Both the position numbers and the translations under genes were made by a program. Shown here one piece after another: positions 4,118 through 26,484 of a stretch of DNA of 32,000 nucleotides. This DNA is from Trichlorobacter lovleyi SZ (GTDB taxonomy: Bacteria; Desulfobacterota; Desulfuromonadia; Geobacterales; Pseudopelobacteraceae). Location of the stretch: assembly GCF_000020385.1 (NCBI RefSeq), contig NC_010814.1:1530001-1562000 (forward strand), written 5' to 3'. A model generated the notes under the pieces. The model saw only the letters and a list, made by a program, of their open reading frames with translations, ran no database searches and was not told where the DNA came from. Each line of letters opens with the position of its first letter. Position 1 is the first letter of the stretch.

Positions 4118-4185
4118 CTGTCTCGGTGAGACCCTGTAGGCTTTCCGTCCTATCCTCACGGATAGTTTAGTAGTATCGATATCAT
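4105..4185 (-). ncRNA. Candidate GEMM-I (c-di-GMP-I / cGAMP class) riboswitch aptamer
   Basis: The minus-strand RNA reads CUAAA-[CUAUCC GUGA GGAUAG]-GACGGAAAGCC-UACAGG-[GUCUC ACC GAGAC]-AGCC-AGGUCGCC. The Vc2 aptamer as I recall it reads GCAAA-[CCAUUC GAAA GAGUGG]-GACGCAAAGCC-UCCGG...AGGUAGC. Shared features are a 6-bp hairpin with a GNRA loop, the GACGNAAAGCC core and AGGUNGC. Boundaries are approximate. Confidence 0.55.
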
Positions 4186-4287: not shown

Positions 4288-6675
4288 TTACTGGATGGTA
4301 ATGCTCTTGGAGGTGGCTTTCAGGGGGAGGAATTGCCCTGTGGCTGACAGGATACGTGTCTGGCCGATGGTGAGATTGGCGGTGCCTTTGCCTTTGGACC
4401 TGAAGATAAAACCGGCCAGCGTACCGCTGCCGGTGGCCCCGGTTGCGGTATCGGCTTGTTGCAGGGTGACGGTGACATTGCCTTTGACCGGGTCGTCCGT
4501 GGTGGTAAAGGCGTCCGGGCCGTTATCCTTGCCGAGTAGCGTCCCTTGTGCGGTTGAGAGCAGTTCCAGTAGTGCCGGTGTGTAGTTCAGTGAGAAACTG
4601 CCGCCCTTCATATCGGATACCCCTTCTGCGCTGACCAGCACCTTGAATGACTGACCGGGTACAGTTGAACTGGGAGCATTGATGGTGAGGGTATTCGGGA
4701 TGGCAGCAGGAGCAACGGGAGCACTGCTGACGGGCGGGGGTACTGAAGGGGCTGCCGGGGAAACAACCGGAACTGCCGGTCTGGCGGCAGCCGGAACCGC
4801 AGGTGGGGCTGACGGTTGAATTGCGGGCAGCGGCTGCACTGCAGGGCGGTCCTCCTTACTGCTTGAGAAGGATGTCAGGTTGCCTCGGGGGACGGTCACG
4901 CCCCTGACGAGCCTGGGTGTAATGGCCAGGATCAGCTCGGTCTTGTCGTTGTCGGTCTTGCTGTTTGACAAGAGCGGTCCGATCAGCGGGATGTCACCCA
5001 GCAGGAAGATCTTCTGTTTGCTGTCGCTGTTGCTGTGGGAGATCAGACCGCCGATGACACTGGTCTCACCGTCTTTGAGGCTTAGGACCGTATCCAGGTT
5101 GCGGGTGCCAATGGTGACCACCGTGGTGGCACTGTCCTTGCCCCCCACGGTCTCGCGGGAGATGATCGAGCTGACCTCAAGTCCCAGCTTGATGGAAACC
5201 TCGTTGTTGAGCTGGATGGTGGGCTCGGCATTGACCTTGACCCCCACATCCACGTACTGCACGTTGACCTGCGAGGTGGTGCCGGTGGTGGCCATGGTGG
5301 TGGTGGTGATCGGTACCCTGGTGCCGACATTGAACTTGGCCTTTTCCTTGTTCTTGACCCTGATCTTGGGATTGGAGAGTACCTCGCCGTTGGCCAGGGT
5401 CTTGCCGAAGTTGTACTGGGCATTGGGCACGGTGACATAACCGCCGAAGCTGTTGATGCTGAAGGCCTTGACCAGGTTCTTGATGGTGGCATCGGTGGTG
5501 ACCGTGGTGGATGTCGTGGAGGTGGTGTCCTTGAGCGTGGTTGCCAGCAGTTCGTTGCTGGGGGAGAACGCCCCCAGCTGCACATCGTAGTTGCTCAGCA
5601 GCAGACCGACGTTGTGGGCGTTCTTGTCACTGATCTCGATCACCTCGACATCCAGCACCACCTCTGCCTCCGGCAGGTCATGGGCCTCCAGGATCTTTTC
5701 GATCACATCGGTGACATCACTGGTATCCCGTACCACCAGGGCATTGGCATCCTCGTTGATATACAGCCGCCTGACCTGCAGCATGGTCCTGATCAGGTTG
5801 GCCGCCTTCTTGGCATCCAGGTGGTTCAGGTGGAAGGTGCGCAGCTGCATGTCCTGGTACTGCTTGGTCTTCTCCGCACTCTGCGGGTAGATCAATACCG
5901 TGCTCTCGTTGATAACGGCATAGTCAATCCTGTGCAGGGCGGCCAGCAGATCGAGTGCCTGGCGGAAACCGCTGTTTTCCAGGGTGAGGGTTGCGGGTTG
6001 ATCCTTGAAGTCAGGATCAAAGACAAAGTTGATGCCGGAATGCCGGGTGATGGTGCTGAATAACTCTTTCAGTCTGGTGCCGTTGGCCTTCAGCGTCAAC
6101 GGCTTCACCGATGTAAGCTGCAGATCCCGACCGGCCAGACTGGTCGCGGGGCTGCCTGCTACCCGTTGCAACGCTTCCTGATACAGTTTGGCATCGGGCC
6201 GGAGCTCAAAAGCCTGTTGAAAGGCACTGCGGGCATACTGCGGCTTGTTGGCCTTTTCAAAATCAAGCCCTTCGCGATAGATTTTGTCTGCCTGGTTGAG
6301 GCGTGCGGCCTGGTCAGCCAGCTGTCTGAACCGTTCCTGGGTCGGGTCAAGACTCGCTGCCGTCTGAAACTGTTCCTCAGCAGCGGCATACAGCGCTTTG
6401 GACATCAGCTCGGTACCGGCCTTGAAGCGTTGTTTGGCTGCTGCCTCACGGGCCCTGAAAAAGCTGAGGCGGTAGCTGCTCTCCGCAGCATTTTTGCTGA
6501 AGGCCTCGGCGTAGCGATACATGGCAGCCTCAAAGTTGCCTTCCTGCTCCAGCTCTTCTCCTTTGCTAAACGCCTTTTGGGCTGCGGAACAGCCCGGCAG
6601 GCAGAGTGCAGCCGCAAGCAGTATCCCGCTCAGGAGCCGGAGCGCGTGCTGTATTGTAGGCATCATTCTGGGCAT
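4288..6675 (-). CDS. Outer-membrane secretin lipoprotein with N-terminal TPR region, secretin core, Pro/Ala linker and C-terminal cohesin-like domain (PulQ-like architecture)
   Basis: Lipobox LPGC after MPRMMPTIQHALRLLSGILLAAALC. TPR-like helical repeats. A Secretin_N-like segment (LRTFHLNHLDAKKAANLIRTML). Secretin core (...VLSNPKIRVKNKEKAKFNVG...LLGDIPLIGPLLSN...LILAITPRLV). Tail GGSFSLNYTPALLELL is cohesin-like. The track ORF starts at a TTG (6705); I prefer ATG 6675, though 6666 or 6663 are possible. Confidence 0.9.
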   Translation of the reverse strand: MPRMMPTIQHALRLLSGILLAAALCLPGCSAAQKAFSKGEELEQEGNFEAAMYRYAEAFSKNAAESSYRLSFFRAREAAAKQRFKAGTELMSKALYAAAEEQFQTAASLDPTQERFRQLADQAARLNQADKIYREGLDFEKANKPQYARSAFQQAFELRPDAKLYQEALQRVAGSPATSLAGRDLQLTSVKPLTLKANGTRLKELFSTITRHSGINFVFDPDFKDQPATLTLENSGFRQALDLLAALHRIDYAVINESTVLIYPQSAEKTKQYQDMQLRTFHLNHLDAKKAANLIRTMLQVRRLYINEDANALVVRDTSDVTDVIEKILEAHDLPEAEVVLDVEVIEISDKNAHNVGLLLSNYDVQLGAFSPSNELLATTLKDTTSTTSTTVTTDATIKNLVKAFSINSFGGYVTVPNAQYNFGKTLANGEVLSNPKIRVKNKEKAKFNVGTRVPITTTTMATTGTTSQVNVQYVDVGVKVNAEPTIQLNNEVSIKLGLEVSSIISRETVGGKDSATTVVTIGTRNLDTVLSLKDGETSVIGGLISHSNSDSKQKIFLLGDIPLIGPLLSNSKTDNDKTELILAITPRLVRGVTVPRGNLTSFSSSKEDRPAVQPLPAIQPSAPPAVPAAARPAVPVVSPAAPSVPPPVSSAPVAPAAIPNTLTINAPSSTVPGQSFKVLVSAEGVSDMKGGSFSLNYTPALLELLSTAQGTLLGKDNGPDAFTTTDDPVKGNVTVTLQQADTATGATGSGTLAGFIFRSKGKGTANLTIGQTRILSATGQFLPLKATSKSITIQ

Positions 6676-13819: not shown

Positions 13820-13835
13820 ATCAAGAACCGTGCCG
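13820..13835 (-). promoter_or_regulatory. Sigma-54-like -24/-12 element upstream of the Cys-rich/TonB/NosL/ABC operon
   Basis: The minus strand reads CGGCACG-GTTC-TTGAT. The GG-to-TTG spacing matches TGGCACG-N4-TTGCW, but -12 has GA instead of GC. It ends about 28 nt upstream of ATG 13791, leaving room for a short leader with AGGAG. It is part of a 19-mer repeated at 17032..17050. Confidence 0.5.
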
Positions 13836-13897: not shown

Positions 13898-13917
13898 TTG
13901 TCTTATTTTGAGACAGG
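13898..13917. promoter_or_regulatory. Inverted-repeat motif TGTCTTA-TTT-TGAGACA (candidate activator binding site / UAS) in the divergent intergenic region
   Basis: TTGTCTTATTTTGAGACAGG is 16/20 identical to 16897..16916. It lies about 70 nt upstream of the -24 element at 13835 and about 60 nt upstream of the kinase start. Confidence 0.4.
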
Positions 13918-13973: not shown

Positions 13974-15557
13974 ATGGCACCTCACCGGAAAAAGCTTTGT
14001 GCCCTGCTGGATGACTCGGGCAAAACAGTTGGCAGGGCAGAGATAATCCAGCAATTTCCCGCCCTGATCTGGCACTCGGGCTTTGATGCCCGTTGTGATT
14101 ATTTTAACCAGACCTGGCTGGCGTTTACCGGCCGGACCCTGGCGCAGGAACTGGGGGATGGCTGGGCAGAGGGGGTTCACCCCGATGATCTGCCGGATTG
14201 TCTCACAACCTACCGGGAGGCGTTTGCGGCCCGGCAGCCGTTTACCATGGAATACCGTCTGCGCTACCATGACGGTTCCTATCGCTGGATTGTTGATCAC
14301 GGTGCTCCCCACTATGCCATTGACGGCTGTTTCTGCGGTTATATCGGCAGTTGCTACGACATTACCCCCCAAAAAGAGTCCGAACGGTCACTGCAGATCT
14401 CCCGGGTTGAGCTGGAGCAGCGGATAGAGCAGTGTTCCTGTGATCTGCAAAAAAGCCATGATCTTCTGAACAGTCTCTCCCAGCAGGTTCCCGGCGGGAT
14501 CTACCAGTTTCAGATGTTTTCCGACGGCCGCTACTGCGTCCCCTATGCCAGCCGGACCATGCTTGAGCTTTTCGAGATTACCCCCGAAGATATTCAGTAC
14601 GATGCAACCTGTCTCTTTGATCGGGTCCTGCCGGATGAGCTGCCCGGCGTGATCGACTCGATTCAGGAGTCTGCCGTTACCCAGACCCCCTGGCACCGCG
14701 AATTCCGGGCGGCTATTCCGTCGAAAGGGATACGCTGGTTCCAGGCTGATTCACGCCCCCGCCGGCAGCCGGACAACAGTGTGATCTGGTGTGGTTTTGT
14801 CACTGATATTACCGAACGCAAGGAGCTTGAACGCCAGCTGGTTGAGGCGCAGCGTCTGGAGTACATCGGCCAGCTGGCAGCCGGGGTGGCCCATGAGGTC
14901 AGAAACCCCCTGAATGCCATCCTGACCGTCACCGAGGCGCTTTTCCGGGAGGAGGGGGTCGAGGGCAATCAAACCTTGACTCCCTATATTGAGCATATCC
15001 GTTCCCAGGTTGTCCGGCTTGCCCGGCTGATGAACGATCTGCTCAGCCTGGGACGGCGCCAGCAGGAAGATCAACTGGTGCCGCTGGCACTGGCTGAATT
15101 TTGCCGCCAGACCGCACAGCTCTGGCAGGAGAGTAGTCCGGCGGGCCACCGTCGGCTGGCGCTGGAGATCCCCCCTGAGGCGGAAACCGCGCTGGCCCGT
15201 GCGGACAAAGATCGTTTGCAGCAGGTGTTGTTTAACCTCCTGGATAACGCCGGGCAGCACAGTCCGCCGGAGAGCAGCATCAGCCTGGTACTTGACCAGC
15301 CTCACGTCTCTGCCGGGGAGCGACACCTGCGGTTGCGGGTGATTGATCAGGGCAGCGGGGTGGCGCCTGGCCTGTATGAAAGGGCTTTTGAACCGTTTTT
15401 TACCACCCGCAAGGGGGGCACCGGATTGGGGCTTGCCCTGGTGAAACAGTTTGTCGATCAGATGGGAGGGATGGTGCAGATCTGTAATAATGATCCTGAA
15501 CCGGGCTGCACGGTTACGTTGCAGTTACAGCCGGCGCCGGAGGAATGCCTGTCATGA
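13974..15557 (+). CDS. Soluble sensor histidine kinase with two PAS domains
   Basis: 527 aa with no TM segment. PAS-like blocks (WIVDHGAP..., GIRWFQADSRP...VTDITERKE). H-box AAGVAHEVRNPLNAI. N/G boxes NLLDNAGQH and GTGLGLALV. Confidence 0.95.
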   Translation: MAPHRKKLCALLDDSGKTVGRAEIIQQFPALIWHSGFDARCDYFNQTWLAFTGRTLAQELGDGWAEGVHPDDLPDCLTTYREAFAARQPFTMEYRLRYHDGSYRWIVDHGAPHYAIDGCFCGYIGSCYDITPQKESERSLQISRVELEQRIEQCSCDLQKSHDLLNSLSQQVPGGIYQFQMFSDGRYCVPYASRTMLELFEITPEDIQYDATCLFDRVLPDELPGVIDSIQESAVTQTPWHREFRAAIPSKGIRWFQADSRPRRQPDNSVIWCGFVTDITERKELERQLVEAQRLEYIGQLAAGVAHEVRNPLNAILTVTEALFREEGVEGNQTLTPYIEHIRSQVVRLARLMNDLLSLGRRQQEDQLVPLALAEFCRQTAQLWQESSPAGHRRLALEIPPEAETALARADKDRLQQVLFNLLDNAGQHSPPESSISLVLDQPHVSAGERHLRLRVIDQGSGVAPGLYERAFEPFFTTRKGGTGLGLALVKQFVDQMGGMVQICNNDPEPGCTVTLQLQPAPEECLS

Positions 15558-16891
15558 AACCGCAGATTTTGCTGATTGAAGACTGTGCCGTAACCCGCTT
15601 CGGAGTGGTCCGTTATTTTTCAAAGGACGGCTATCAGATCAGTGAAGCCGGATCACTGGCCGAGGCCACCAGGTTGATGGCTGAGCGACGTTTTGACCTG
15701 ATTATCATTGATGTCAACCTGCCCGACGGTAACGGCCTTGACTTGATCAGAGCCGAACGGGAGGCCCAGAATCTGGTGCCGATTATTGTGGTTACCGGCG
15801 CCGGAGATATCCCCCTGGCGGTTGAGGCGATGCAGTGCGGCGCCGACAACTTTCTGACCAAACCGCTTGATATGCCGGCCCTTTCGATTTCGCTGGCCAA
15901 ATCCCTTGAGCTGGGAACGCTTAAACGGCAGTCAATGGCCCGCAAGCGGATGGAAAAACAGCTGGGCATCTTTTTTGGCGCCACACCGGCCATGCAGGAG
16001 GTGCAACAGGTTGCCCGGATGGCTGTTGACAACGCCCATCCGGTGCTGATCACCGGTGAAACCGGTACCGGCAAGGGGATGCTGGCCAAGTGGATTCACC
16101 AGCAGGGCTGCCGTGCCCAGTACGAGTTTGTTGAGTTGAACTGCTCAAGTCTGCGGGGGGAGATGCTCTCCCGCGAGCTGTTCGGTGCCCAGCGGGGGGC
16201 CTACACCTCGGCCGATCAGGACCGTCGCGGGCTGGTTGATGTTGCTGACCGCGGCAGTCTGTTTCTGGACGAGATCGGCGATATGAGCAGTGAAGTGCAG
16301 GCCCAGTTTCTCAAACTGCTTGAAGACAAGACTTACCGGCGGCTGGGGGATGTCAAACTGCTGAAAAGCGACTTCCGGCTGATCTGCGCCACCCACCGCG
16401 ACCTGCATGCCTTCTGTGCCGATGGTCAGTTTCGGCAGGATCTGTTCTACCGGATCAACCTGATCCATATCCATCTTCCACCTCTCAGGGAGCGCCGGGA
16501 GGACTTGCCGGCCATTACCTCCTACCTGCTCAACCTGCTGGGGGCAACTGATCAGGTGCTGACTGACGAGGTGCGAGGGCTGCTGTTCTCCTATGACTGG
16601 CCCGGCAATATCCGTGAAATGCGCAACGTGCTGGAGCGGGCCCTGCTGCTGACCCCGCCGGGCGGCACCCTGCGGCACTCACTGTTTTCCTGTATAAACG
16701 GTGGGCAGCGGCCCTGTCCAATCCATCTGTCTGCAGAGCCTCAGACCGTGCAGCAGGTTGAAACGGCCCATATTCAGGCCGTCCTTGCCCAGCATGGCGG
16801 TAATGTGGATAAGGCCGCCAAGGCATTAAACCTTTCCCGCGCCACCCTCTATCGCCGCCTCAAGCAACTCAGAGATGAGGGAGGCTGCTGA
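15554..16891 (+). CDS. NtrC-family sigma-54-dependent response regulator (REC, AAA+, Fis-type HTH)
   Basis: REC domain (ILLIEDC...DLIIIDVNLPDGNG). Walker A GETGTGKG, Walker B LFLDEIGDM, sigma-54 contact loop variant GAYTSA, HTH ...AAKALNLSRATLYRRLK. ATG 15554 makes an ATGA overlap with the kinase stop and sits 9 nt after GGAGGA; the in-frame ATG 15545 is an alternative. Confidence 0.95.
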   Translation: MKPQILLIEDCAVTRFGVVRYFSKDGYQISEAGSLAEATRLMAERRFDLIIIDVNLPDGNGLDLIRAEREAQNLVPIIVVTGAGDIPLAVEAMQCGADNFLTKPLDMPALSISLAKSLELGTLKRQSMARKRMEKQLGIFFGATPAMQEVQQVARMAVDNAHPVLITGETGTGKGMLAKWIHQQGCRAQYEFVELNCSSLRGEMLSRELFGAQRGAYTSADQDRRGLVDVADRGSLFLDEIGDMSSEVQAQFLKLLEDKTYRRLGDVKLLKSDFRLICATHRDLHAFCADGQFRQDLFYRINLIHIHLPPLRERREDLPAITSYLLNLLGATDQVLTDEVRGLLFSYDWPGNIREMRNVLERALLLTPPGGTLRHSLFSCINGGQRPCPIHLSAEPQTVQQVETAHIQAVLAQHGGNVDKAAKALNLSRATLYRRLKQLRDEGGC

Positions 16892-16916
16892 GACAGCTGT
16901 CTCATCTTGAGATAGG
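16889..16916. promoter_or_regulatory. Perfect 16-bp palindrome TGAGACAGCTGTCTCA overlapping the regulator stop codon, extended by TCTTGAGATAGG (candidate UAS and/or terminator hairpin)
   Basis: Read directly from the sequence. 16897..16916 (CTGTCTCATCTTGAGATAGG) matches 13898..13917 at 16/20 positions. It lies about 130 nt upstream of the 17035 element. Confidence 0.45.
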
Positions 16917-17034: not shown

Positions 17035-17050
17035 CGGCACGGTTCTTGAT
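17035..17050 (+). promoter_or_regulatory. Second copy of the sigma-54-like element CGGCACG-GTTC-TTGAT
   Basis: The same 16-mer as at 13820..13835; the full 19-mer caacggcacggttcttgat spans 17032..17050. It ends 12 nt before ATG 17063, which would imply a nearly leaderless transcript or a different role such as an operator. Confidence 0.4.
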
Positions 17051-17062
17051 TGTGATGCCGGT

Positions 17063-17515
17063 ATGTCCAGTCCCGCATCACATACCTGTTGCCGCCCCGA
17101 TTGCCTCTGTGACCGGGTCCTGATCGTCGATGACGAGCCGGGCATCCTGTTTGCCTATCGCAAACTGCTGGAACAGAAGGGGCTGGTTGTTGATAGCTGT
17201 GACTGTCTCTGCGAGGCGCTCGACTATCTGGAAAAGCATCATTATCTGGCCGTGGTCGCCGATATGCGCTTGCAGGGTACCGATACCATGGACGGCCTGG
17301 ATCTGGTTCGGGAGGTACGCCGGCGTCAGCCCGCAGCCGGAATTATTGTCGCATCCGGCACCAGCGACCAGAAGACACGTCAGTCCGCGTCCGAGCTGGG
17401 GGTTGATCACTACCTTGAAAAACCGATCCATCCCTCCCGTATCCTTGATCTGTTGATTCAACTTCGAAATACCGTTCATGGCGAAGAGCTGCTGCCCGCC
17501 CCTGAAACAGGGTAG
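17063..17515 (+). CDS. Single-domain (REC-only, CheY-like) response regulator with a short Cys-rich N-terminal extension
   Basis: RVLIVDDEPGILFAYRKLLE...AVVADMRLQG...IIVASG...HYLEKP. N-terminus MSSPASHTCCRPDCLCD. The start is uncertain: ATGs at 16940 and 17009 are in frame but would place the 19-mer inside the CDS. Confidence 0.75.
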   Translation: MSSPASHTCCRPDCLCDRVLIVDDEPGILFAYRKLLEQKGLVVDSCDCLCEALDYLEKHHYLAVVADMRLQGTDTMDGLDLVREVRRRQPAAGIIVASGTSDQKTRQSASELGVDHYLEKPIHPSRILDLLIQLRNTVHGEELLPAPETG

Positions 17516-17531
17516 ATCGTTATGCTGAATT

Positions 17532-17639
17532 TTCCTTCTCCCTGTGGGGGAAGGTGGCCGAAGACCGGTTGAAGGGGCAGCAACGGCTTGAAATGAGCCT
17601 CTTTCTCCTCACCCTGGCCCTCTCCCCAGGAAGAAGGAA
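17532..17639. repeat. Imperfect inverted repeat (~18-nt arms) flanking ~70 nt in the leader of the FKBP gene
   Basis: The left arm is ttccttctccctgtggggg. The reverse complement of the right arm (17622-17639) is ttccttcttcctggggag. An inner ggggaaggtggcc / ggccctctcccc pairing is also present. Confidence 0.35.
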
Positions 17640-17668
17640 TTTACTACCTCCGGAAAGGATGACCCGTT

Positions 17669-18331
17669 ATGAGACCGTTGCTTGTCCTGGCTGTTCTGGC
17701 CGTTGCTACCCAGGCCTGTGCCCTTGAGCCACCCAAAACTGAAGAACAAAAGACCCTGTATGCCATTGGCCAGACCGTGTCACGCCAGTTGTCGGTCTTT
17801 AATCTGAGCGCGGATGAATTCCAGTATGTGCTGCTGGGCCTGACCGATGCCCAATCCGGCAATAAGGCGGCGGCAGAGCCTGCCCAGTACAACCGTAAGA
17901 TTCAGGAACTGGCCCGGTCCCGCCGGGCTGCCCATGCCCAGAAGCTTGGCCCGGCCAACAAAGAAGCCCTTGAAAAAGCTGCCAAGGAGCAGGGGGCCGT
18001 CAAGAGCGCCTCAGGGCTGATCTACCTTCCGGTGAAGGAGGGGAACGGCGCGCAACCGAAGCTGACCGATACGGTACGGGTCAATTACCGCGGTATCCTC
18101 GTTGATGGCAAAGAGTTTGACAGTTCCTACAAACGGGGCAATCCACTCGAGTTTAAGCTGGATAGCGTCATTAAATGCTGGACTGAAGGGGTACAGAAGA
18201 TGAAGGTGGGGGGGAAGGCAAAGCTGACCTGCCCTGCCGCACTGGCCTATGGTGAACAGGGAGCCGGCGACCTTATTCTGCCGGGTGCTACCCTCCAGTT
18301 TGAGGTTGAATTGCTTGATATCAAAAAATAA
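17669..18331 (+). CDS. Periplasmic FKBP-type peptidyl-prolyl cis-trans isomerase (FkpA/Mip-like, with N-terminal dimerisation helix region)
   Basis: Signal peptide MRPLLVLAVLAVATQACA. FKBP core VRVNYRGILVDGKEFDSSY...FKLDSVIKCWTEGVQKMKVGGKAKLTCPAALAYG...LQFEVELLDI. Confidence 0.95.
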   Translation: MRPLLVLAVLAVATQACALEPPKTEEQKTLYAIGQTVSRQLSVFNLSADEFQYVLLGLTDAQSGNKAAAEPAQYNRKIQELARSRRAAHAQKLGPANKEALEKAAKEQGAVKSASGLIYLPVKEGNGAQPKLTDTVRVNYRGILVDGKEFDSSYKRGNPLEFKLDSVIKCWTEGVQKMKVGGKAKLTCPAALAYGEQGAGDLILPGATLQFEVELLDIKK

Positions 18332-18355
18332 CCGTTGTCCGAACGGAGTGTCCCC

Positions 18356-18937
18356 ATGAAACGTCATCTGTCCCGGTTGATCTGTCTGCTGCTGTTTCTG
18401 CCGGTTTTAATGGTTTGTGCTGCATCCCCTGCCATGGCTGCACCGGTTACCTACAAGCGAACCGTTGAAAAGTATCAGGTGCCGGATGTGATTCTGACCA
18501 ACCAATTCGGCAAAAAGGTCCGGCTGAAGACGTTGCTGGAGTCCGGGCGTCCGGTGGCCGTTGATTTTATCTATGCCACCTGTACCACCATCTGTCCGGT
18601 GCTTTCCGCCGGGTATACCAATCTGCAACGAAAACTGGGGGCGGACAGTGTCAAAGTGCAACTGGTCTCCATCACCATTGACCCGGAAAATGATAATCCG
18701 AAGGTTCTCAAGGAGTATCTGCAACGCTACCAGGCCAAACCGGGGTGGGATTTTCTGACCGGTAGCCGGAAGGATATTGACCGGGTCATGCATGCCTTTG
18801 ACGCCTATTTCCGCGACAAGATGGACCATAAGCCGCTCACCTTCATACGGGGGGCGGATGGCTCCTGGATCAGGCTTTACGGTCTGATCAGCAGTAGTGA
18901 ATTTCTGGCAGAATACAAAAAAGCGGGGCTCCTATGA
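18356..18937 (+). CDS. SCO1/SenC-family thioredoxin-fold copper chaperone
   Basis: Start moved to MKRHLSRLI (GGAG 8 nt upstream). CxxxCP motif (ATCTTICPV), SITIDPENDNP, WDFLTG, and a downstream His (MDHKPL). Confidence 0.9.
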   Translation: MKRHLSRLICLLLFLPVLMVCAASPAMAAPVTYKRTVEKYQVPDVILTNQFGKKVRLKTLLESGRPVAVDFIYATCTTICPVLSAGYTNLQRKLGADSVKVQLVSITIDPENDNPKVLKEYLQRYQAKPGWDFLTGSRKDIDRVMHAFDAYFRDKMDHKPLTFIRGADGSWIRLYGLISSSEFLAEYKKAGLL

Positions 18938-20625
18938 CACTACGTACGAAACTGCCGGCAGAACAGGTCTTAATGGTGCTGTTGAGTATAGCTCTCTGTC
19001 TTGCCCTGGGCGCAGCTGCCTGGGCTGCCCCTTCAGACGAAACCATGCGGTTCGGGGAGCAGATGTACCGCAAAGGGCTGCTCCCCTCCGGGGCTCCCAT
19101 CAAGGCCTATGTCAGCGGCGATGTGCCGGTGGACGGCACATCGTTCACCTGCGTCAGTTGCCATCTGCGCAGCGGACTCGGCTCTATTGAAGGGGAGGTC
19201 ATCACGCTACCGACCAACGGGAGGATCCTGTATCAGCCGAGAAGGCCGTTTATCCCCGGCTCCGAGTTTGTTCCTTCCTACTCCAACTATGCAAAATACC
19301 TGCCGGAGCGTCCTGCCTATACCGACGATTCGCTGGCTGCGCTGATCCTGACCGGTATTGACCCCACCGGCCGGTCGGTTCTGAAGGTCATGCCCCGTTA
19401 CGACCTGGGCGACAAGGATATGGCGATTATGATCAGCTATCTGAAATCACTTTCTGATCAGCCGCCTCCCGGCGTGACCAAAGAAGAGATCAGGTTTGCC
19501 ACGGTCATTGTTGAAGGGACTGACCCGGTTGCGGTGCAGTCGATGCTGGCCCCCCTGCAGTTCAGTATTGACCGCAAGAACAGCCTGGCTACCGCCGCAG
19601 TGAAAAATCATCGTGTGGCGCGGATGGGCTACAACATGCTGGGAGATCTTTCCGCCCTCAAATTTTCACTGTCACGCTGGACGCTCAAGGGGGCTCCGGC
19701 AACCTGGCTGTCTCAGCTGGAAGAATACTACCGCAAGGAGCCGGTCTTTGCCTTGCTGGGTGGTATCTCGGAAGGGGAGTGGGAGCCGGTGCACCGCTTC
19801 TGCGAAGAGAAAAAGATCCCCAACCTGTTTCCGGTTGTAGACTACCCGGTACTCTCGGATACAGACTGGTATACCCTCTATTTCTCGCGTGGGGTCCGCC
19901 AGGAGGGCGAAGCTGCGGCCCGCTATCTGCACGGCATGGCCGAGCTGTTTAAAGGCAGGCCGGTACTGCAGCTGTACCGGGCCGGTCGCAAAGGGCAGGC
20001 CCTGGCAGCAGGATTCAGGGAGTCCTGGAAGACTGCCGGTGGTGGTGCGATAACAGAGGTCCGTCTGCCTGCCAATGAAAAGCTGACGGCAAAAAAGGTA
20101 CGGCAACTGGTTAACCGGAAAAATCCGGCAGCCCTGGTTCTTTGGGATGATGCAGCGTCACTGCCGGCACTGTCAGGGCTGGCAGCGCAGAAAAAGCGGC
20201 CCGGTCTGGTCCTTGCCTCCGGCACCTATCTGGGCAAGGCGCTGTGGACGATCCCGGAAGAATTGCGAGCTCTGCTCTATCTGACCTACCCCTATCGCCT
20301 GCCCCAGGAGGACAGCCGCTTTGACGTCAATGTCAAGCGGGTGCTGCAGGGTAGACCACTTGAACTGTATGAACAGAGGATCGTCAGGCAGTCCTATCTT
20401 ACCGGCGAAGTGCTTGGCAAGGCGTTGATGATGATGCGCGGCGAATATTACCGCGATTACCTGTATGATGTGATCGGTATGATGTCGGACATGCACTACC
20501 CCCTGTATGAACGGGTCAGTTTCGGGCCGGGCCAGCGCTATGCCTCCAAGGGCTCCTATATTGTGCAGTTGGGCAGTGGCAGGAATCCCGTGCTCGAACG
20601 CCGCAGTGAATGGGTAATACCGTGA
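18934..20625 (+). CDS. Fusion protein: monoheme cytochrome c domain plus type-1 periplasmic solute-binding (LivK-like) domain
   Basis: ATGA overlap with the SCO1 stop. Signal peptide. A single CVSCH heme motif with a candidate axial Met (KVMPRY). The C-terminal ~380 aa resemble branched-chain amino-acid type binding proteins (alternating beta-alpha pattern, KKIPNLFPV...). Confidence 0.8.
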   Translation: MTLRTKLPAEQVLMVLLSIALCLALGAAAWAAPSDETMRFGEQMYRKGLLPSGAPIKAYVSGDVPVDGTSFTCVSCHLRSGLGSIEGEVITLPTNGRILYQPRRPFIPGSEFVPSYSNYAKYLPERPAYTDDSLAALILTGIDPTGRSVLKVMPRYDLGDKDMAIMISYLKSLSDQPPPGVTKEEIRFATVIVEGTDPVAVQSMLAPLQFSIDRKNSLATAAVKNHRVARMGYNMLGDLSALKFSLSRWTLKGAPATWLSQLEEYYRKEPVFALLGGISEGEWEPVHRFCEEKKIPNLFPVVDYPVLSDTDWYTLYFSRGVRQEGEAAARYLHGMAELFKGRPVLQLYRAGRKGQALAAGFRESWKTAGGGAITEVRLPANEKLTAKKVRQLVNRKNPAALVLWDDAASLPALSGLAAQKKRPGLVLASGTYLGKALWTIPEELRALLYLTYPYRLPQEDSRFDVNVKRVLQGRPLELYEQRIVRQSYLTGEVLGKALMMMRGEYYRDYLYDVIGMMSDMHYPLYERVSFGPGQRYASKGSYIVQLGSGRNPVLERRSEWVIP

Positions 20626-20642
20626 AAAGAAAAGAGGATATT

Positions 20643-20993
20643 ATGATCAGACAAGGCATCCTGGCACTGTTGGCTCTGTTTCTGTTGCTGGCGCCTGCTG
20701 CAGATCTGTTGGCTGCCGCTGCAGATGTGACGATCTACATCGTGAGCGATTATCGTTATCTGCCGGGTAAGGCAAAAGGCGACCCGGTAATGGGACAGTC
20801 TCTGTGCGGTACCCGCTGTAATGCCCTTTCAACCAATTATCTGAATATTGTCGAGCCTGGCGGTTGGCGTCTGATCAAAGTTGCCGGCGGACGCGTATTG
20901 ACCGTACCACTCAATAATCCTTTCATGGGGGGGGATTGCGTCTGTGTCGTGGACGAATACATGGTGAAGGTCGATCATCTCAACAAACCGTAG
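20643..20993 (+). CDS. Small secreted hypothetical protein with four Cys
   Basis: Start moved to MIRQGILALLALFLLLAPA (AGAGGA RBS). 116 aa. Cys positions: CGTRC and GGDCVCV. No family recognised. Confidence 0.6.
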   Translation: MIRQGILALLALFLLLAPAADLLAAAADVTIYIVSDYRYLPGKAKGDPVMGQSLCGTRCNALSTNYLNIVEPGGWRLIKVAGGRVLTVPLNNPFMGGDCVCVVDEYMVKVDHLNKP

Positions 20994-21040
20994 TTTTTTC
21001 TCAGTCCTTCCGGATTTCCCACCCCAGTCTCACCTCCGTC

Positions 21041-21081
21041 GCACTATGAGACAGATACAAATCGTATCTGTCTCATAGTGC
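21041..21081. promoter_or_regulatory. 41-nt perfect hairpin/palindrome (18-bp arms, 5-nt loop) carrying TGAGACA...TGTCTCA; terminator of the upstream operon and/or UAS for the downstream sigma-54 promoter
   Basis: gcactatgagacagatac (21041-21058) is the exact reverse complement of gtatctgtctcatagtgc (21064-21081). Its centre lies about 90 nt upstream of the GG of the 21151 element. Confidence 0.6.
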
Positions 21082-21150
21082 ATCTACATCCCCCTTTTTA
21101 AGCCGGTCAATTTTGCAAAGTTTTGAGTTGTTTCGGGCTGTTTCGCGTGT

Positions 21151-21166
21151 CGGCATGCTCTTTGCT
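21151..21166 (+). promoter_or_regulatory. Sigma-54 promoter candidate upstream of the small-protein / multicopper-oxidase pair
   Basis: CGGCATG-CTCT-TTGCT shows the correct GG-N10-GC geometry against TGGCACG-N4-TTGCW. It lies about 125 nt upstream of ATG 21292. Confidence 0.6.
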
Positions 21167-21291
21167 CGGTAGTAAATAAGTCAAGTTCTATGCTGCTGAA
21201 ACCGTTGGTAAAATAATAATTTTTTAATGTTGTTTGAAAGGCTGCCTGAACCGGATACCCATCGCTCGGATCAATGAAAGGAGCATGCATC

Positions 21292-21555
21292 ATGAAAATC
21301 CCGACAACACTCGTAACTGGAGTACTGATGGCCGCGCTGCTCGCTGTGACGGCATCGGCAGAAGCCCAGCTGCAAAAGCGTCAGCCGGTGCAGTTGAATC
21401 CGGCGGTAAACAGCAAGGTGCCGCAGGCCCAGAAGGCCACCGTGCAAAAGCGTGAGCTGGCACGACAACAGCGTGACAAGAAGCTGAAGGTGAGGGCAGC
21501 TAACACGCAGAGAAAAGGCGGTCCGACCTCGCTTCCGAAACCTGTGCATCGGTAG
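21292..21555 (+). CDS. Small secreted, highly basic Lys/Gln/Arg-rich hypothetical protein
   Basis: Start moved to MKIPTTLVTGVLMAALLAVTASAEA (AAGGAG 8 nt upstream). The mature part is low-complexity (QKRQPVQ...KKLKVRAANTQRKGG). No family recognised. Confidence 0.55.
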   Translation: MKIPTTLVTGVLMAALLAVTASAEAQLQKRQPVQLNPAVNSKVPQAQKATVQKRELARQQRDKKLKVRAANTQRKGGPTSLPKPVHR

Positions 21556-21623: not shown

Positions 21624-24600
21624 ATGAACAAGCGAACATTACGAAGTCGAATGACAGCCCTGCTGTCCGGCTTGGCCCTGATTATGGGGCTGGGTACGGC
21701 GCAGGCCTACCTGAGCCCGGATTATTCGAATCCGGCCTATGCTCCGGGAGGGGCAACGCCCTTTGTGATCGGGCCGGGAAATACCCCGGATTACCTGACC
21801 ACCCCCAACTGGGCCTACACCCCCCCGATCCGCAAGTTTGTCGATACCCTGCCGGGACTGGGTGCCGCAAACGTCAACAACCTGGGACAGTATATCCCGG
21901 TTGCAGTGCCGGATATCGTGACCTATCCCGGTTCCGACTACTACGAGATAGAGCTGCGTGAGTTTTCGGAGAAGGTGCATTCCGATCTGCCACCTACCAC
22001 CATGCGGGCCTATCGTCAGGTAAATGCCGGTACGGTCACGACATCCTGTACCGATCCGGCACTCAGTCAGCCCAATCCCTGTACCGAGGCCAACAACACC
22101 GCACAGGTTGAAGCCAACCCGCGCCAGTTCGGACCGGTCATCGTTGCCCAGAAAGACCGGCCGGTACGGATCAAGTTCATCAACAGCCTGCCGACCGGTT
22201 CCGGGGGTGACCTGTTCATCCCGGTCGACCAGACCATCATGGGGGCAGGCCCCTTCCAGATTGATTACGATCCGGTCACTAAGCAGCCGATTCAGGTTAC
22301 CTCCGGCACCTTTAGCCAGAACCGTGCAGAACTGCACCTGCATGGTGGTCGCACTCCCTGGATCAGTGACGGTACCCCCCACCAGTGGATTACCCCTGCG
22401 GGGGAGGTAACCAGTTATCCCACCGGTGTCAGTATGACCAACGTGCCGGATATGCCTGACCCCGGTCCAGGCGCCCAGACCTACTACTATACCAACCAGC
22501 AAAGTTCCCGCCTGATGTTCTACCACGACCACAGCTGGGGTATTACCCGACTTAACGTCTATGTGGGCGGCGCTGCCGGCTATGTTATCCGTGATGCTGT
22601 AGAACAGCAGCTGATTGCCGACGGCAAAATCCCTGCTGAAGAGATTCCGTTGATCATTCAGGACAAGACCTTTGTGGATGGCGACCCGGCATCGCCGACC
22701 TATGTGCTGAAGACCGACCCGACCTGGAAATGGGGCACCGGTACTATCGGCAGTAACGGCTTCCGTATCCCCCAGAGCGGTGATCTGTGGTGGCCTCATA
22801 TCTATATGCCGGCCCAGAACCCCTTTGATATCACCGGTATCGCTCCGATGGGGCGTTGGGCCTATGGTCCCTATTTCTGGCCGGCCACCCCTAACCCGTA
22901 TCAACCGATTCCCAACCCCTACTATAGCCCGGACTGCGTGCCCGGCGGTGATCCTGCAACAACCCCCGGACTTTTGGGTGGCCCCTATGGCGACTTCTGC
23001 CAACCACCTGAAATTCCTGCAACGCCTAACCCTTCCTGGGGCGCTGAAGCCTTTATGGATACCCCGACGATTAACGGTACCGCCTATCCGGTGCTGACGG
23101 TTGAGCCGAAGGCCTACCGCTTCCGCATTCTGAATGCGGCCCATGACCGTTTTGTAAACCTGCAGTTGTATAAAGCGGACCCGGCCCCGGCGCCTCTGGA
23201 TTACAGCGGTGCATTTCCCCCCTCCTGTACAAGCTATACGGCACCGGGCTATGGTGGATTCAGCGGCATCTGTGCCAGCAATACAGAAGTCAAAATGGTA
23301 CCTGCTCAACCGGGTGGTGTCGGCAAACCAGCCACCTGGCCGGAAGACGGCCGTCCTGGTGGCGTGCCTGACTGGAACACCGCCGGTCCCAACTGGATCA
23401 TGATCGGCAGTGAAGGCGGTTTCCTGCCCAGGCCGGTAGTGTTGCCGCCGCAACCGCTTAACTGGAATGCCGATGTGACCACCTTTAACGCAGGTAACGT
23501 CAACACCGGTTCACTGATCCTTGCCCCGGCAGAGCGGGCAGATGTTATTGTTGATTTTTCCGGTATCCCTTCGGGTACCACCCTGATCCTGTATAACGAT
23601 GCCCCGGCACCATGGCCGGCCCTTGACCCCCACTATGATTACTATACCGGTGCCCCGGACAACCGTGCCATGGGTGGTGCTGATACCACGCCGATCGGTT
23701 TTGGTCCCAACACCCGTACCCTGATGCAGATCAAGGTGCAGGGCACCCCTGCAGCTACCTTTAACGTGGCAGCACTGAACGCCGCCTTTACACCGTCTAC
23801 CCCCGCTCTTGGCGTATTCCGGCAGTCGCAGGAGTCTCTGGTTGTGGGGCAGGGCAACATGAACCCCACCGGCGATCCTGCCTACTATGAGGCCTTTGCC
23901 TTTGACGGCGTTGCCTATGACGCGCTTAACACCATTTACGGTACCGCCTTTGCCACCACCTTCCCCAACTGGGGGGTGTCGCGGATCAATGACAAGGAGA
24001 TCAGCTTCAAGACCATCAACCCTGACGGCACTGTCAACCCGACGGTTCAGACGGTTACCATGAAGCTTAAGGCCATTCAGGATGAACAGGGTGAAACCTT
24101 TGACGACTACGGCAGGATGCGGGCCGCCCTGGGGCTGACCCTGTCCAACCCGGCCGCCGGCCAGGTGAACTTCATTGTCCAGACCTACAGCGACCCCTCA
24201 ACAGAGGTGCTGGCCGAGGAAGGTATTCAGGTCTGGAAGATTACCCACAACGGTGTGGACACTCACCCGATTCACTTCCACCTGTTTGATGTGCAGATCC
24301 TGAACCGGGTAGGCTGGGACGGCTTCATCCGTCTGCCCGACCCAACCGAACTGGGCTGGAAAGAAACCGTCCGGGTCAGCCCGCTGGAAGACACCATCGT
24401 TGCCGTGCGCCCGGTCAAACCAATGCTGCCGTTCGGTATTCCGAACAGTGTACGTCCACTTAATCCGGCCACCCCGCTGGGCGATGCGACCGAGCTTTCC
24501 ATGATAGATCCAACCACCGGTCAAGCCTGGGGCACCCCCAACGTTAACAGGATTCTCAACCTCGGTTGGGAGTATGTCTGGCATTGTCACATCCTGAGTC

Positions 24601-26429
24601 ACGAAGAAAACGACATGATGCGGCCGATTTCGTACAATCCGGGGGTCACCATTCCGGATGCACCCACCGCTCTGGCAACCAACGCCTTATTCATTGACGG
24701 TAATGTTACCCTGACCTGGGTTGACCCGACTCCCAAGGCTGCCTCTACAACCATGGGCAACCCCAAGAACGAGATCAACTTCATTATTGAACGTTGTTCC
24801 GGTCTTGACTGCAGCAACTTCGTAGCGGTCGGCACGGCCCTGGCCAATGCCACCAGCTTTACAGACACAACCGTAACAGCTGGTACGCAGTATCGCTATG
24901 CCGTTGCAGCCTACAACGCAGCAGGCACCTCAACTCGATCAAATATTATTAGTGTAACCGCAGTGCAGGCCCCAACCGTAGACTTGACAAGCCCAACAAA
25001 CGGCACCGTGTATTGGCCGGGAACAACTATCCCCTTGGCTGCCACTGCTACAGCGCCAAATGGATCAACCATTACCAAGGTTGAGTTTTATGACGGCACG
25101 ACACTGCTGAGTACAGATACCAGTTCCCCTTATTCGTACAACTGGGCAACAGCAACCTCAGGCAGCCATAGCTTGACCGCCAAGGCCTATGCAAGTAACG
25201 GGGCGGTGGTAACGTCAAGTGCGGTTGCTATATCGTTAACAGCTCCTGTTAGTAGTGCTACGCTTAGTGCTACCCCTTCTAGTCCTCAGACAGTTGGCGT
25301 TGCCCAGGTAGTCTTTAATGCGACAGCCAGCGGTGGAAGTGGTTCGTATGAGTACAAATTTATGCAGAAGATTGCAGGTGTTTGGACAACAGTGCAGGAT
25401 TATGGTGCGGCTTCTTCGTATACTTGGAATTCGTCTTTACAACCCACAGGTACATATGGTTTCCAAGTTTATGTACGCAATGCTGGTGCAACTAATGCCT
25501 ATGATGTGGCAAAAGCGATGGGCTATACCATTAATGCAACAGCAGTTAGTGGTGCTACGCTTAGTGCTACCCCTTCTAGTCCTCAGACAGTTGGCGTTGC
25601 CCAGGTAGTCTTTAATGCGACAGCCAGCGGTGGAAGTGGTTCGTATGAGTACAAATTTATGCAGAAGATTGCAGGTGTTTGGACAACAGTGCAGGATTAT
25701 GGTGCGGCTTCTTCGTATACTTGGAATTCGTCTTTACAACCCACAGGTACATATGGTTTCCAAGTTTATGTACGCAATGCTGGTGCAACTAATGCCTATG
25801 ATGTGGCAAAAGCGATGGGCTATACCATTAATGCAACAGCAGTTAGTGGTGCTACGCTTAGTGCTACCCCTTCTAGTCCTCAGACAGTTGGCGTTGCCCA
25901 GGTAGTCTTTAATGCGACAGCCAGCGGTGGAAGTGGTTCGTATGAGTACAAATTTATGCAGAAGATTGCAGGTGTTTGGACAACAGTGCAGGATTATGGT
26001 GCGGCTTCTTCGTATACTTGGAATTCGTCTTTACAACCCACAGGTACATATGGTTTCCAAGTTTATGTACGCAATGCTGGTGCAACTAATGCCTATGATG
26101 TGGCAAAAGCGATGGGCTATACCATTAATGCAACAGCAGTTAGTGGTGCTACGCTTAGTGCTACCCCTTCTAGTCCTCAGACAGTTGGCGTTGCCCAGGT
26201 AGTCTTTAATGCGACAGCCAGCGGTGGAAGTGGTTCGTATGAGTACAAATTTATGCAGAAGATTGCAGGTGTTTGGACAACAGTGCAGGATTATGGTGCG
26301 GCTTCTTCGTATACTTGGAATTCGTCTTTACAACCCACAGGTACATATGGTTTCCAAGTTTATGTACGCAATGCTGGTGCAACTAATGCCTATGATGTGG
26401 CAAAAGCGATGGGCTATACCATTCAATAA
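21624..26429 (+). CDS. Giant secreted multicopper oxidase (Geobacter OmpB-like) with FN3, Ig-like and four identical C-terminal Y_Y_Y-like repeat domains
   Basis: GGAGG RBS and a signal peptide. The four canonical MCO copper motifs are present: HLHGG, YHDHSWG, HPIHFHLFD, WHCHILSHEENDMM. An FN3-like block (LTWVDPTP...TQYRYAVAAYNAAGTS), an Ig-like block (KVEFYDGTTLLSTDTSSPYSYNW), then 4 x 99 aa repeats (SGSYEYKFMQKIAGVWTTVQDY...). Confidence 0.95.
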   Translation: MNKRTLRSRMTALLSGLALIMGLGTAQAYLSPDYSNPAYAPGGATPFVIGPGNTPDYLTTPNWAYTPPIRKFVDTLPGLGAANVNNLGQYIPVAVPDIVTYPGSDYYEIELREFSEKVHSDLPPTTMRAYRQVNAGTVTTSCTDPALSQPNPCTEANNTAQVEANPRQFGPVIVAQKDRPVRIKFINSLPTGSGGDLFIPVDQTIMGAGPFQIDYDPVTKQPIQVTSGTFSQNRAELHLHGGRTPWISDGTPHQWITPAGEVTSYPTGVSMTNVPDMPDPGPGAQTYYYTNQQSSRLMFYHDHSWGITRLNVYVGGAAGYVIRDAVEQQLIADGKIPAEEIPLIIQDKTFVDGDPASPTYVLKTDPTWKWGTGTIGSNGFRIPQSGDLWWPHIYMPAQNPFDITGIAPMGRWAYGPYFWPATPNPYQPIPNPYYSPDCVPGGDPATTPGLLGGPYGDFCQPPEIPATPNPSWGAEAFMDTPTINGTAYPVLTVEPKAYRFRILNAAHDRFVNLQLYKADPAPAPLDYSGAFPPSCTSYTAPGYGGFSGICASNTEVKMVPAQPGGVGKPATWPEDGRPGGVPDWNTAGPNWIMIGSEGGFLPRPVVLPPQPLNWNADVTTFNAGNVNTGSLILAPAERADVIVDFSGIPSGTTLILYNDAPAPWPALDPHYDYYTGAPDNRAMGGADTTPIGFGPNTRTLMQIKVQGTPAATFNVAALNAAFTPSTPALGVFRQSQESLVVGQGNMNPTGDPAYYEAFAFDGVAYDALNTIYGTAFATTFPNWGVSRINDKEISFKTINPDGTVNPTVQTVTMKLKAIQDEQGETFDDYGRMRAALGLTLSNPAAGQVNFIVQTYSDPSTEVLAEEGIQVWKITHNGVDTHPIHFHLFDVQILNRVGWDGFIRLPDPTELGWKETVRVSPLEDTIVAVRPVKPMLPFGIPNSVRPLNPATPLGDATELSMIDPTTGQAWGTPNVNRILNLGWEYVWHCHILSHEENDMMRPISYNPGVTIPDAPTALATNALFIDGNVTLTWVDPTPKAASTTMGNPKNEINFIIERCSGLDCSNFVAVGTALANATSFTDTTVTAGTQYRYAVAAYNAAGTSTRSNIISVTAVQAPTVDLTSPTNGTVYWPGTTIPLAATATAPNGSTITKVEFYDGTTLLSTDTSSPYSYNWATATSGSHSLTAKAYASNGAVVTSSAVAISLTAPVSSATLSATPSSPQTVGVAQVVFNATASGGSGSYEYKFMQKIAGVWTTVQDYGAASSYTWNSSLQPTGTYGFQVYVRNAGATNAYDVAKAMGYTINATAVSGATLSATPSSPQTVGVAQVVFNATASGGSGSYEYKFMQKIAGVWTTVQDYGAASSYTWNSSLQPTGTYGFQVYVRNAGATNAYDVAKAMGYTINATAVSGATLSATPSSPQTVGVAQVVFNATASGGSGSYEYKFMQKIAGVWTTVQDYGAASSYTWNSSLQPTGTYGFQVYVRNAGATNAYDVAKAMGYTINATAVSGATLSATPSSPQTVGVAQVVFNATASGGSGSYEYKFMQKIAGVWTTVQDYGAASSYTWNSSLQPTGTYGFQVYVRNAGATNAYDVAKAMGYTIQ
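25248..26424 (+). repeat. Tandem repeat, ~3.96 copies of a 297-bp unit, nucleotide-identical between copies apart from the first few bases of copy 1
   Basis: gttagt(a/g)gtgctacgcttagtgc recurs at 25248, 25545, 25842 and 26139. I compared copies 1 and 2 base by base and found them identical. The four identical out-of-frame 96/82-aa ORFs in the track at 297-bp spacing confirm copies 3 and 4. Confidence 0.95.
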
Positions 26430-26453
26430 TGCAATAAAATCGAGTTTTTCATG

Positions 26454-26484
26454 GTGAGTGGCCTTTGGGCCACTCACGATTTTT
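26454..26484 (+). terminator. Rho-independent terminator after the multicopper oxidase gene (shared convergent gene end)
   Basis: A 10-bp stem (gtgagtggcc / ggccactcac) with loop tttg, followed by gaTTTTT. The stop codon of the convergent sugar-transferase gene lies inside the 3' arm. Confidence 0.75.

Follow-up and report, generated by a model that had tools for sequence, protein, structure and literature searches.

A 41-nucleotide palindrome as the probable core of a two-site sigma-54 enhancer upstream of an OmpB/MofA-like multicopper oxidase gene in Trichlorobacter lovleyi

The element considered here is a perfect palindrome of 41 nucleotides (nt), positions 21041–21081 of a 32,000-nt stretch of the Trichlorobacter lovleyi SZ genome (contig NC_010814.1; ‘the window’ is that whole stretch), upstream of a gene for an OmpB/MofA-like multicopper oxidase. 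Comparison of the sequence with that of its relatives makes it quite probable that the palindrome forms the core of an enhancer with two sites, supplemented by one half-site, for the NtrC-family sigma-54 activator encoded locally at 15545–16891. The preliminary description of this DNA had placed a perfect palindrome with the half-sites TGAGACA and TGTCTCA about 90 nt before a −24/−12 element, and its coordinates hold, as 91 nt separate the palindrome centre, 21061, from the GG of that element further downstream. The features of the immediate region are these.

21027–21033, plus strand: extra half-site AGTCTCA, preceding the next half-site, in the distal dyad, by 10 base pairs (bp) or one helical turn, and outside the interval first described; its GTCTCA is invariant in all haplotypes.
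21037–21053: predicted distal activator site, CGTCGCA-cta-TGAGACA, centre 21045 (about −132), two mismatches to the 7-3-7 motif.
21069–21085: predicted proximal activator site, TGTCTCA-tag-TGCATCT, centre 21077 (about −100), four mismatches, all in the outer half.
21086–21150: enhancer–promoter spacer, poorly conserved and T-tract rich (39 of 65 positions vary among close relatives).
21151–21166, plus strand: sigma-54-type −24/−12 element, CGGCATGCTCTTTGCT, with the required GG-N10-GC spacing.
21167–21291, plus strand: predicted 5′ untranslated region (UTR) of about 115 nt, with the ribosome-binding site AAAGGAG at 21277–21283.
21292–21555, plus strand: gene for an 87-residue, K/R/Q-rich signal-peptide protein, the first gene after the promoter.
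21624–26429, plus strand: gene for the OmpB/MofA-like multicopper oxidase, 1601 residues, with four Y_Y_Y repeats.

The arms of the palindrome, 21041–21058 (GCACTATGAGACAGATAC) and 21064–21081 (GTATCTGTCTCATAGTGC), are 18 nt each, 100% complementary and separated by a 5-nt loop, AAATC; TGAGACA is at 21047–21053 and TGTCTCA at 21069–21075. How does this long palindrome relate to sites of the 7-3-7 type? The right half and spacer of the distal site are the left arm, and the palindrome as a whole is the inner halves of the two sites joined. A reading of it, with flanking bases, as two degenerate 7-3-7 sites with centres some 33 nt or three turns apart had been proposed earlier, and for the left site this stands well: TGTCTCA-N3-TGAGACA at two or fewer mismatches occurs four times in the window against 0.07 expected (none of 100 shuffles reaches four), this site being one of the four, and in the L001/L038 haplotype it reads TGTCGCA and so has a single mismatch. 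The right site is weaker. The three helical turns also stand, the measured distance being 32 bp, and the two centres are 107 and 75 nt before the GG; half-site centres across the oxidase enhancer are spaced 10, 10, 22 and 10 bp. NtrC-type enhancers have dyad-symmetric sites, usually at least two, some 70–150 bp upstream and on the same helical face, and that is the arrangement found.

The case is carried in large part by what is found at other promoters. Three of the four motif matches in the window, at 13899, 16898 and 21037, precede sigma-54-type promoters, and the fourth is inside the oxidase gene. That internal one, the motif-like TGTCACAtccTGAG(T/C)CA at 24585–24601, recurs at the orthologous place in one relative (L002:8598–8614) and probably reflects coding conservation instead of a site. 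The other sites, their promoters and the genes concerned are as follows.

13820–13835, minus strand: promoter of the g13222/TonB/NosL/ABC operon, CGGCACGGTTCTTGAT, a 16-mer identical to that at 17035.
13899–13915: motif TGTCTTA-ttt-TGAGACA, upstream of the g13222/TonB-receptor/NosL operon promoter.
13974–15557, plus strand: PAS histidine kinase, presumed partner of the activator.
15545–16891, plus strand: NtrC-family activator, the proposed binder, with REC (PF00072), Sigma54_activat AAA+ (PF00158, 3e-57) and HTH_8 (PF02954) domains.
16898–16914: motif TGTCTCA-tct-TGAGATA, upstream of the promoter of the response regulator (RR) operon and overlapping a TGAGACAGCTGTCTCA palindrome at 16889–16904.
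17035–17050, plus strand: RR-operon promoter, CGGCACGGTTCTTGAT, with −12 TTGA.
17063–20993, plus strand: co-directional operon upstream of the palindrome, encoding a single-domain RR, an FKBP (MofB-like), SCO1, a periplasmic-binding-like protein (PBP) with one CxxCH (MofC-like) and the 127-residue protein g20610.

About 15 related loci from Trichlorobacter and Geobacteraceae, with activator identity from 96% to 63%, were available for comparison. Homologues of the activator led to L029–L035 and L038–L043 (the L numbers denote loci of relatives), spanning that same range of identity, and all have the order kinase-activator-RR-FKBP-SCO1-PBP, with FKBP missing in L031; wherever a contig reaches upstream of the kinase the NosL operon is divergent from it, L034 being the exception. 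In nine loci with activator orthologues, 23 of 25 motif matches with two or fewer mismatches are in three shared intergenic places, and each conserved place keeps its own fixed distance to the promoter, so that copies are centred near −98 or near −130. From the centre to the first G is 71–74 nt at the NosL/TonB promoter; at the RR promoter it is 104–106 nt to the GG (130 in the window and L041); and at the oxidase promoter 105–108 and 73–76 nt occur together, meaning that this promoter (GG at −25/−24) uses both of the positions that the others use singly. The RR sites also bear a third half-site. In L002 the RR site is a perfect CTGTCTCA-CTA-TGAGACAG (CTGTCTCACTATGAGACAG), having the 13-mer CACTATGAGACAG in common with the palindrome arm, and an exact TGTCTCAtttTGAGACA precedes the RR promoter of a locus with the same gene order whose activator is 63% identical. 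The motif is, in short, present at three classes of promoter and conserved together with the activator from 96% to 63% identity. The earlier suggestion that the oxidase promoter answers to the same regulator as the TonB/NosL operon is borne out by this phylogenetic footprinting, in as far as three conserved places with set spacing, the retention of the sites in L032 and L033 and the L002 13-mer all point to a single predicted regulator.

A genome scan with the N-terminus of the oxidase yielded 28 loci, including two Trichlorobacter metagenome-assembled genomes at 92–94% identity, and the synteny SCO1-PBP-g20610-gap-oxidase extends to 25 of the 28, among Desulfuromonadales, Desulfobulbales, Nitrospiraceae and Chromatiales. 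In the distant oxidase loci L003–L028 the motif is absent at one or fewer mismatches, and activator-like genes, 29–44% identical, are near only some of them. The motif would then travel with the activator clade and not with the oxidase.

Some observations on the RR and NosL sites stand apart. Both promoters have TTGA instead of TTGC as their −12 element, a feature shared by relatives with as little as 63% activator identity. Only about 13 nt lie between the −12 element and the RR start codon at 17063, so that the RR messenger would be nearly leaderless. The palindrome TGAGACAGCTGTCTCA at 16889–16904, 16 bp and perfect, is over the stop codon of the activator gene, and its half-sites (7-2-7) are oriented the other way round from those of the regulon dyad; perfection is confined to the window (L041 has TGAGACGgcTGTCTCA, with one mismatch), and both loci are those with an RR dyad spacing of 130 nt and not about 105.

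The 41-nt palindrome occurs in four haplotypes: that of the window, L041 and L042; that of L002; that of L030, L040, L036 and L037; and that of L001, L038 and L039. A metagenome scan for palindrome variants, anchored in the promoter and UTR, added two contigs identical to L030 and no new diversity. In the four haplotypes the 15-nt arm cores, CACTATGAGACAGAT and ATCTGTCTCATAGTG, are invariant: variable positions number 0 of 30 in the cores as against 59 of 108 (55%) in flanking non-coding DNA (Fisher p = 5e-9), while changes are seen at seven of nine loop positions and at three of seven in the outer half of the proximal site. The arm cores thus seem to be under purifying selection. That the palindrome arose by chance, or is a functionless selfish repeat of the repetitive extragenic palindromic (REP) or miniature inverted-repeat transposable element (MITE) kind, is hardly credible in the face of cores so constant amid diverged flanks. 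The chance expectation for the arm pair is 0.01, no further copy of an arm was found in the window at three or fewer mismatches, and in place of the many copies that characterize REP and MITE elements there is, in 42 loci and the window, one copy at the orthologous place only. What might be urged for such an origin is that repeat-like GC-rich inverted repeats occupy the equivalent gap in L003 and L004. These, at L003:2913–2988, L004:9117–9158 and L004:9857–9911, are long and built on CATGCCCGCGAT; as L004 holds two of them, they look like dispersed REP-like elements.

Could the arms be the operator of some other dimeric regulator, a metal-responsive repressor for instance, that reads the two 15-bp arms as one palindrome? 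Dedicated repressors are frequent in copper gene clusters, and the invariance of both 15-bp arms, including bases outside the 7-3-7 motif, would suit such a protein. The idea is nevertheless very improbable given that the conserved cluster encodes no further DNA-binding regulator, that a position near −115 is unusual for a repressor, and that the half-site is common to three promoters beside the activator gene. The 15-mer core, in addition, occurs once in the window and nowhere but the orthologous place among the 42 loci that were scanned (about 0.6 Mb by estimate, and no whole genome).

Is the length of the palindrome needed for the enhancer? Loci L032 and L033, with 72% activator identity, do without it, and have a good distal dyad, a proximal TGTCTCA 32–33 bp away and a promoter at nearly the same spacing. 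In L032, TGTCTCA-ttc-TGAGATG is at 107, a second TGTCTCA is 33 nt downstream and the promoter is TGGTATGGTCTTTGCT; in L033 the sites are at 115 and 83 and the promoter is TGGCATGGTAGTTGCT. In T. thiogenes (L029), g20610 has been lost and the hairpin is absent, and two TGTCTCA are 30 nt apart in the same gap. Since L032 and L033 keep sites and promoter in its absence, the palindrome is a lineage-specific elaboration, and would represent the embellishment of an older two-site enhancer and not a separate device; its length and perfection would arise because the two inner half-sites, which are strong, are turned towards one another and the sequence around them became symmetric in this Trichlorobacter lineage.

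The promoter itself requires more circumspection. CGGCATG-CTCT-TTGCT at 21151–21166 matches 10 of the 12 specified positions of TGGCACG-N4-TTGCW with the proper spacing, and had been put forward as the best −24/−12 match in the window. It is not: 5127–5142 has a single mismatch, and the 10/12 score is a tie with six other elements. TGGCAC-N5-TTGCW at two or fewer mismatches is found 27 times in the window against 24.8 expected, which is chance level, and match quality alone is therefore no evidence; reliance is placed on conservation and geometry. The GG and GC are invariant in all four haplotypes (L041 reads CGGCACGTTCTTTGCT), L032 and L033 have TGGYATGGT..TTGCT, and a sense-strand match of at least 10/12 precedes the oxidase in six of 26 distant loci, as compared with 0.45 on average, and never more than 3, in shuffled sequences and with one on the reverse strand. 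The promoter is, in other words, conserved at the orthologous place in diverged surroundings. Its assignment to the oxidase also needs qualification, for it is upstream of the oxidase gene as had been said, but the first gene it would serve is the 87-residue signal-peptide open reading frame (ORF), the oxidase being second. Nine related loci have a called gene for 86–87 residues at the same position, and in more distant loci it is occupied by small signal-peptide ORFs of a similar kind.

The predicted start of transcription is near 21177. The UTR that would follow has no Rfam match and folds no better than shuffles (z = +0.8); it varies at 38 of 125 positions, being better conserved than the enhancer–promoter spacer. 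Within the spacer is an IHF-like match, ACTCAAAACTTTG, at 21116–21128 on the minus strand with one mismatch; the consensus does not discriminate (25 matches in the window, 14 expected), and it was dropped as evidence.

The protein proposed to bind these sites is a sigma-54 AAA+ activator with a C-terminal helix-turn-helix (HTH), and it is encoded within the regulon that it would control. Its matches to named NCBIfam regulators are all far below cut-offs, so that it is an equivalog of none of them. Its HTH helix, LN[LI]SRATLYRRLKQ, is preserved in the best 40 of 120 listed homologues.

Several points tell against a sigma-54 enhancer here and have to be weighed. The sigma-54 contact loop of the activator (ELFGAQRGAYTSA in the 15545–16891 protein) is GAYTSA and not the canonical GAFTGA; all 120 listed homologues have a GA[FY]TSA loop, and the literature searched held no functional data on a GAFTSA/GAYTSA variant and no mention of ‘GAFTSA’. 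The rpoN gene is not within the 32-kb window, the only part of the genome examined. Several chance matches within coding sequence are at least as good as the promoter element, and an extended −10-like TGGTAAAAT at 21206–21214, inside the predicted 5′ UTR, read by eye and unscored, could give a sigma-70 start. Both oxidase sites are degenerate, by two and four mismatches. The spacers CTA/TAG and the flanking GAT/ATC are invariant, which exceeds the needs of the 7-3-7 motif and makes an additional constraint, a hairpin for example, likely. Then there are the relatives that differ: L031 has a promoter-like element with no motif in the 150 nt upstream of it, and in L034 (66%) only 32 nt separate g20610 from the small ORF, with neither promoter nor hairpin. 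The L034 oxidase gene is part of a long operon from the RR promoter, which there has two dyads, and as an internal promoter is lacking the enhancer is not universal. The oxidase would still be under the same control in every design, with the internal enhancer and promoter a later addition in some lineages.

What of the RNA? The palindrome begins 48 nt past the stop codon of g20610 (20610–20993). The region folds at −36.9 kcal/mol (z = −8.9), and the hairpin, as plus-strand RNA, at −31.9 kcal/mol (z about −11). The preliminary description allowed that the hairpin might simply terminate the upstream operon, and as a sole function this was rejected. A Rho-independent terminator has a stem-loop after a stop codon, which is present, and a U-tract, which is not: no haplotype has a T-run after the stem, the tail being ATCTACATCCCCC, and the terminator scan does not list the element. 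Canonical GC-rich, T-tailed terminators do exist elsewhere in the window, at 26454–26477 and 1444–1474. The former is on the plus strand just past the oxidase stop codon, a 10-bp GC-rich stem followed by GATTTTTCGT. Taken together with the 44% G+C of the palindrome stem, these show that the palindrome does not belong to the canonical intrinsic terminators. Nor did Rfam, whether at the gathering or at a permissive threshold, yield any relevant family; its matches were generic hairpins far below cut-off (mir-5615, 32.9 against 82 bits).

A broader version, in which the element is a terminator or 3′-end hairpin and nothing else, TGAGACA and TGTCTCA have no significance of their own and the oxidase operon owes its expression to read-through or to activation from another place, can appeal to a very stable hairpin just past a stop codon and to inverted repeats at the same place in unrelated taxa. 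It is improbable all the same, for motif and promoter spacing are kept in L032, L033 and L029, which cannot form the long hairpin, a 13-mer in the arm is common to another regulon site, and the arm cores are wholly invariant where compensatory drift would be looked for, in addition to the missing U-tract.

More deserving of attention is that the one element serves twice, as a DNA enhancer and as an RNA hairpin at the 3′ end of the RR-FKBP-SCO1-MofC-like-g20610 transcript, which it would mark, stabilise or in part terminate. A dual role would account for a palindrome longer and more perfect than binding needs, as well as for the spacers and GAT/ATC being constant beyond what the motif demands, and the great stability of the hairpin so soon after the g20610 stop accords with it. 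All three sequence variants of the palindrome retain 18 pairs as plus-strand RNA, the changes being A-U to G.U, G-C to G.U, and an inner AC/GT to GC/GC with a bulge. Long inverted repeats are present 40–100 nt past the g20610 homologue in other taxa (L003, L004, L012 and L017). The dyads at RR promoters, which also follow a co-directional stop codon, extend into perfect arms of 12–13 bp in L002:752–786, L029:11341–11375, L030:10431–10465 and L031:11351–11385, and among Trichlorobacter relatives their arms differ by two compensatory pairs (GCCC/GGGC in some, TTCC/GGAA in others); no extension of this kind is seen at the NosL site, which is in a divergent and untranscribed gap. These are hints that the RR-site enhancers have been selected for pairing too. 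However, the wobble changes represent two or three non-independent events, so that discrimination between RNA and DNA is not significant, and the pairing-preserving events altogether are few and phylogenetically non-independent, which leaves a second, RNA-level role no more than possible. Perfect quasi-palindromes can also come from template-switch mutation without selection; the stem is low in G+C and has no U-tract in any haplotype, unlike the terminators at 26454–26477 and 1444–1474; L032, L033 and L029 do without the long hairpin; and insulation seems needless for two operons that are apparently co-regulated and in L034 are fused. The dual role is accordingly rather less likely than not.

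If the palindrome is, as favoured here, the core of an enhancer, events might proceed as follows. The phosphorylated activator would bind the two sites as dimers and assemble into the active oligomer, and looping of the DNA would bring this into contact with sigma-54 RNA polymerase in its closed complex at the promoter, perhaps aided by the T-tract-rich spacer or by integration host factor (IHF). The transcript from about 21177 would cover the gene for the 87-residue secreted protein and that for the OmpB/MofA-like oxidase. Two more operons, RR-FKBP-SCO1-MofC-like and g13222/TonB-receptor/NosL/ABC, would be under this activator as well, and with a shared activator the copper delivery genes and the copper enzyme would be induced together. 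The mechanism is standard bacterial enhancer biology; what is new is the activator and the regulon predicted for it.

The rest of the locus can be dealt with briefly. The kinase-activator side, on the plus strand, is divergent from the minus-strand operon, which comprises g13222, a TonB-dependent receptor, two NosL genes, a small protein, an FtsX-like protein, an ABC ATPase and g6867. The product of the PBP gene, 18934–20625, has one haem c motif only (CVSCH, residue 73) and fits the description of MofC in the OmpB/MofA literature. The C-terminus of the oxidase, 25318–26457, carries four near-identical 297-nt tandem repeats, the Y_Y_Y domains, with the same 16-mer at 25476, 25773, 26070 and 26367. 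The minus strand also has a secretin gene and, at 1498–3879, that for a nine-haem cytochrome. Upstream of the latter is a c-di-GMP-I riboswitch aptamer (4105–4181, minus strand; 42.4 bits, gathering 35), which fits the Geobacter-type placement of GEMM-I before cytochrome genes. Identical 16-mers and hairpin-like stretches 2341 nt apart (407/2748, 492/2833 and 558/2899), at about 400–600 and 2740–2920 of the window, indicate a duplicated segment shared by the cytochrome gene and the gene at the left edge of the window.

Why should this regulation be of interest? OmpB-type oxidases have been implicated in extracellular metal-oxide reduction by Geobacter, and their homologues are proposed to oxidize metals in other bacteria. 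The predicted regulon, that is, the pair of PAS kinase and NtrC-type activator, a 17-bp motif and three sigma-54 promoters, ties the oxidase to its presumed copper supply: TonB receptor, NosL, ABC transporter, SCO1, FKBP and the MofC-like protein. Further targets can be sought in Geobacteraceae genomes by means of the motif, and the palindrome is a clean system for asking whether an enhancer doubles as an RNA 3′-end hairpin. More speculatively, and on balance we would not wager on it, enhancers in the co-directional gaps of this lineage may have been recruited to double duty, as DNA for activator docking and as RNA hairpins that set or protect 3′ ends, and these, with the GA[FY]TSA loop and −12 TTGA promoters, may distinguish a subfamily of sigma-54 activators devoted to the copper supply of OmpB-type oxidases across Geobacteraceae. 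Were that double duty real, read-through and activator occupancy could affect each other.

The closest architectural parallel is NtrC at glnAp2 of enterics, where two 17-bp 7-3-7 dyads, TGCACCA-N3-TGGTGCA, about three turns apart near −140 and −108, are upstream of a sigma-54 promoter and are bound by a response regulator of REC-AAA+-HTH_8 structure. The oxidase enhancer resembles it in its paired 7-3-7 sites, here near −132 and −100 and 32 bp apart. It differs in the half-site, in having strong inner and weak outer halves, from which the 41-nt palindrome results, in the GAYTSA loop of its activator where NtrC has GAFTGA, and in its copper-handling and not nitrogen targets.

GlrR (QseF) at glmY and glmZ has three TGTCN10GACA sites upstream of sigma-54 promoters, with IHF sites between (PMC3045617). 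Several dyads at sigma-54 promoters and a two-component activator encoded nearby are features in common, the motif here being TGTC-N9-GACA. The spacing is one base shorter, though, the targets are protein operons and not small RNAs, and the activator, at 259.8 bits where the cut-off is 763, does not qualify as a GlrR equivalog.

A likeness of another sort is to Rho-independent terminators, with which the palindrome shares a stable stem-loop 48 nt past a stop codon, though it has no U-tract and its stem is long and AT-rich instead of short and GC-rich.

A counterpart in function is CorSR with curA of M. xanthus, in which CorR, with sigma-54, controls a copper cluster; the oxidase CuoA is among its genes, and there are several sigma-54 promoters within it (PMC3707914). 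Both systems have a response regulator with PF00072, PF00158 and PF02954 over copper genes and a multicopper oxidase. CorS has a periplasmic sensor domain, whereas here there is a PAS kinase, and the binding sites of CorR are undefined in PMC3707914; the oxidase here, moreover, is of the large OmpB/MofA type, with SCO1, FKBP and MofC-like partners.

Those partners are the ones known from OmpB/MofA clusters, GSU1394–1398 of G. sulfurreducens and mofABC of Leptothrix, whose genes, and not their regulation, are described in PMC5566968. The literature searched held nothing on sigma-54 control of ompB or on the motif itself, nothing on the regulation of OmpB-type oxidases and no paper linking Geobacter ompB to RpoN, and the main text of the G. 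sulfurreducens RpoN regulon paper has no mention of ompB, GSU1394, GSU1395, GSU1398 or copper (PMC2725144). The likeness to those clusters is in content: the oxidase, a MofB-like FKBP isomerase, a MofC-like periplasmic-binding protein with haem c and an SCO1 chaperone (PMC5566968).

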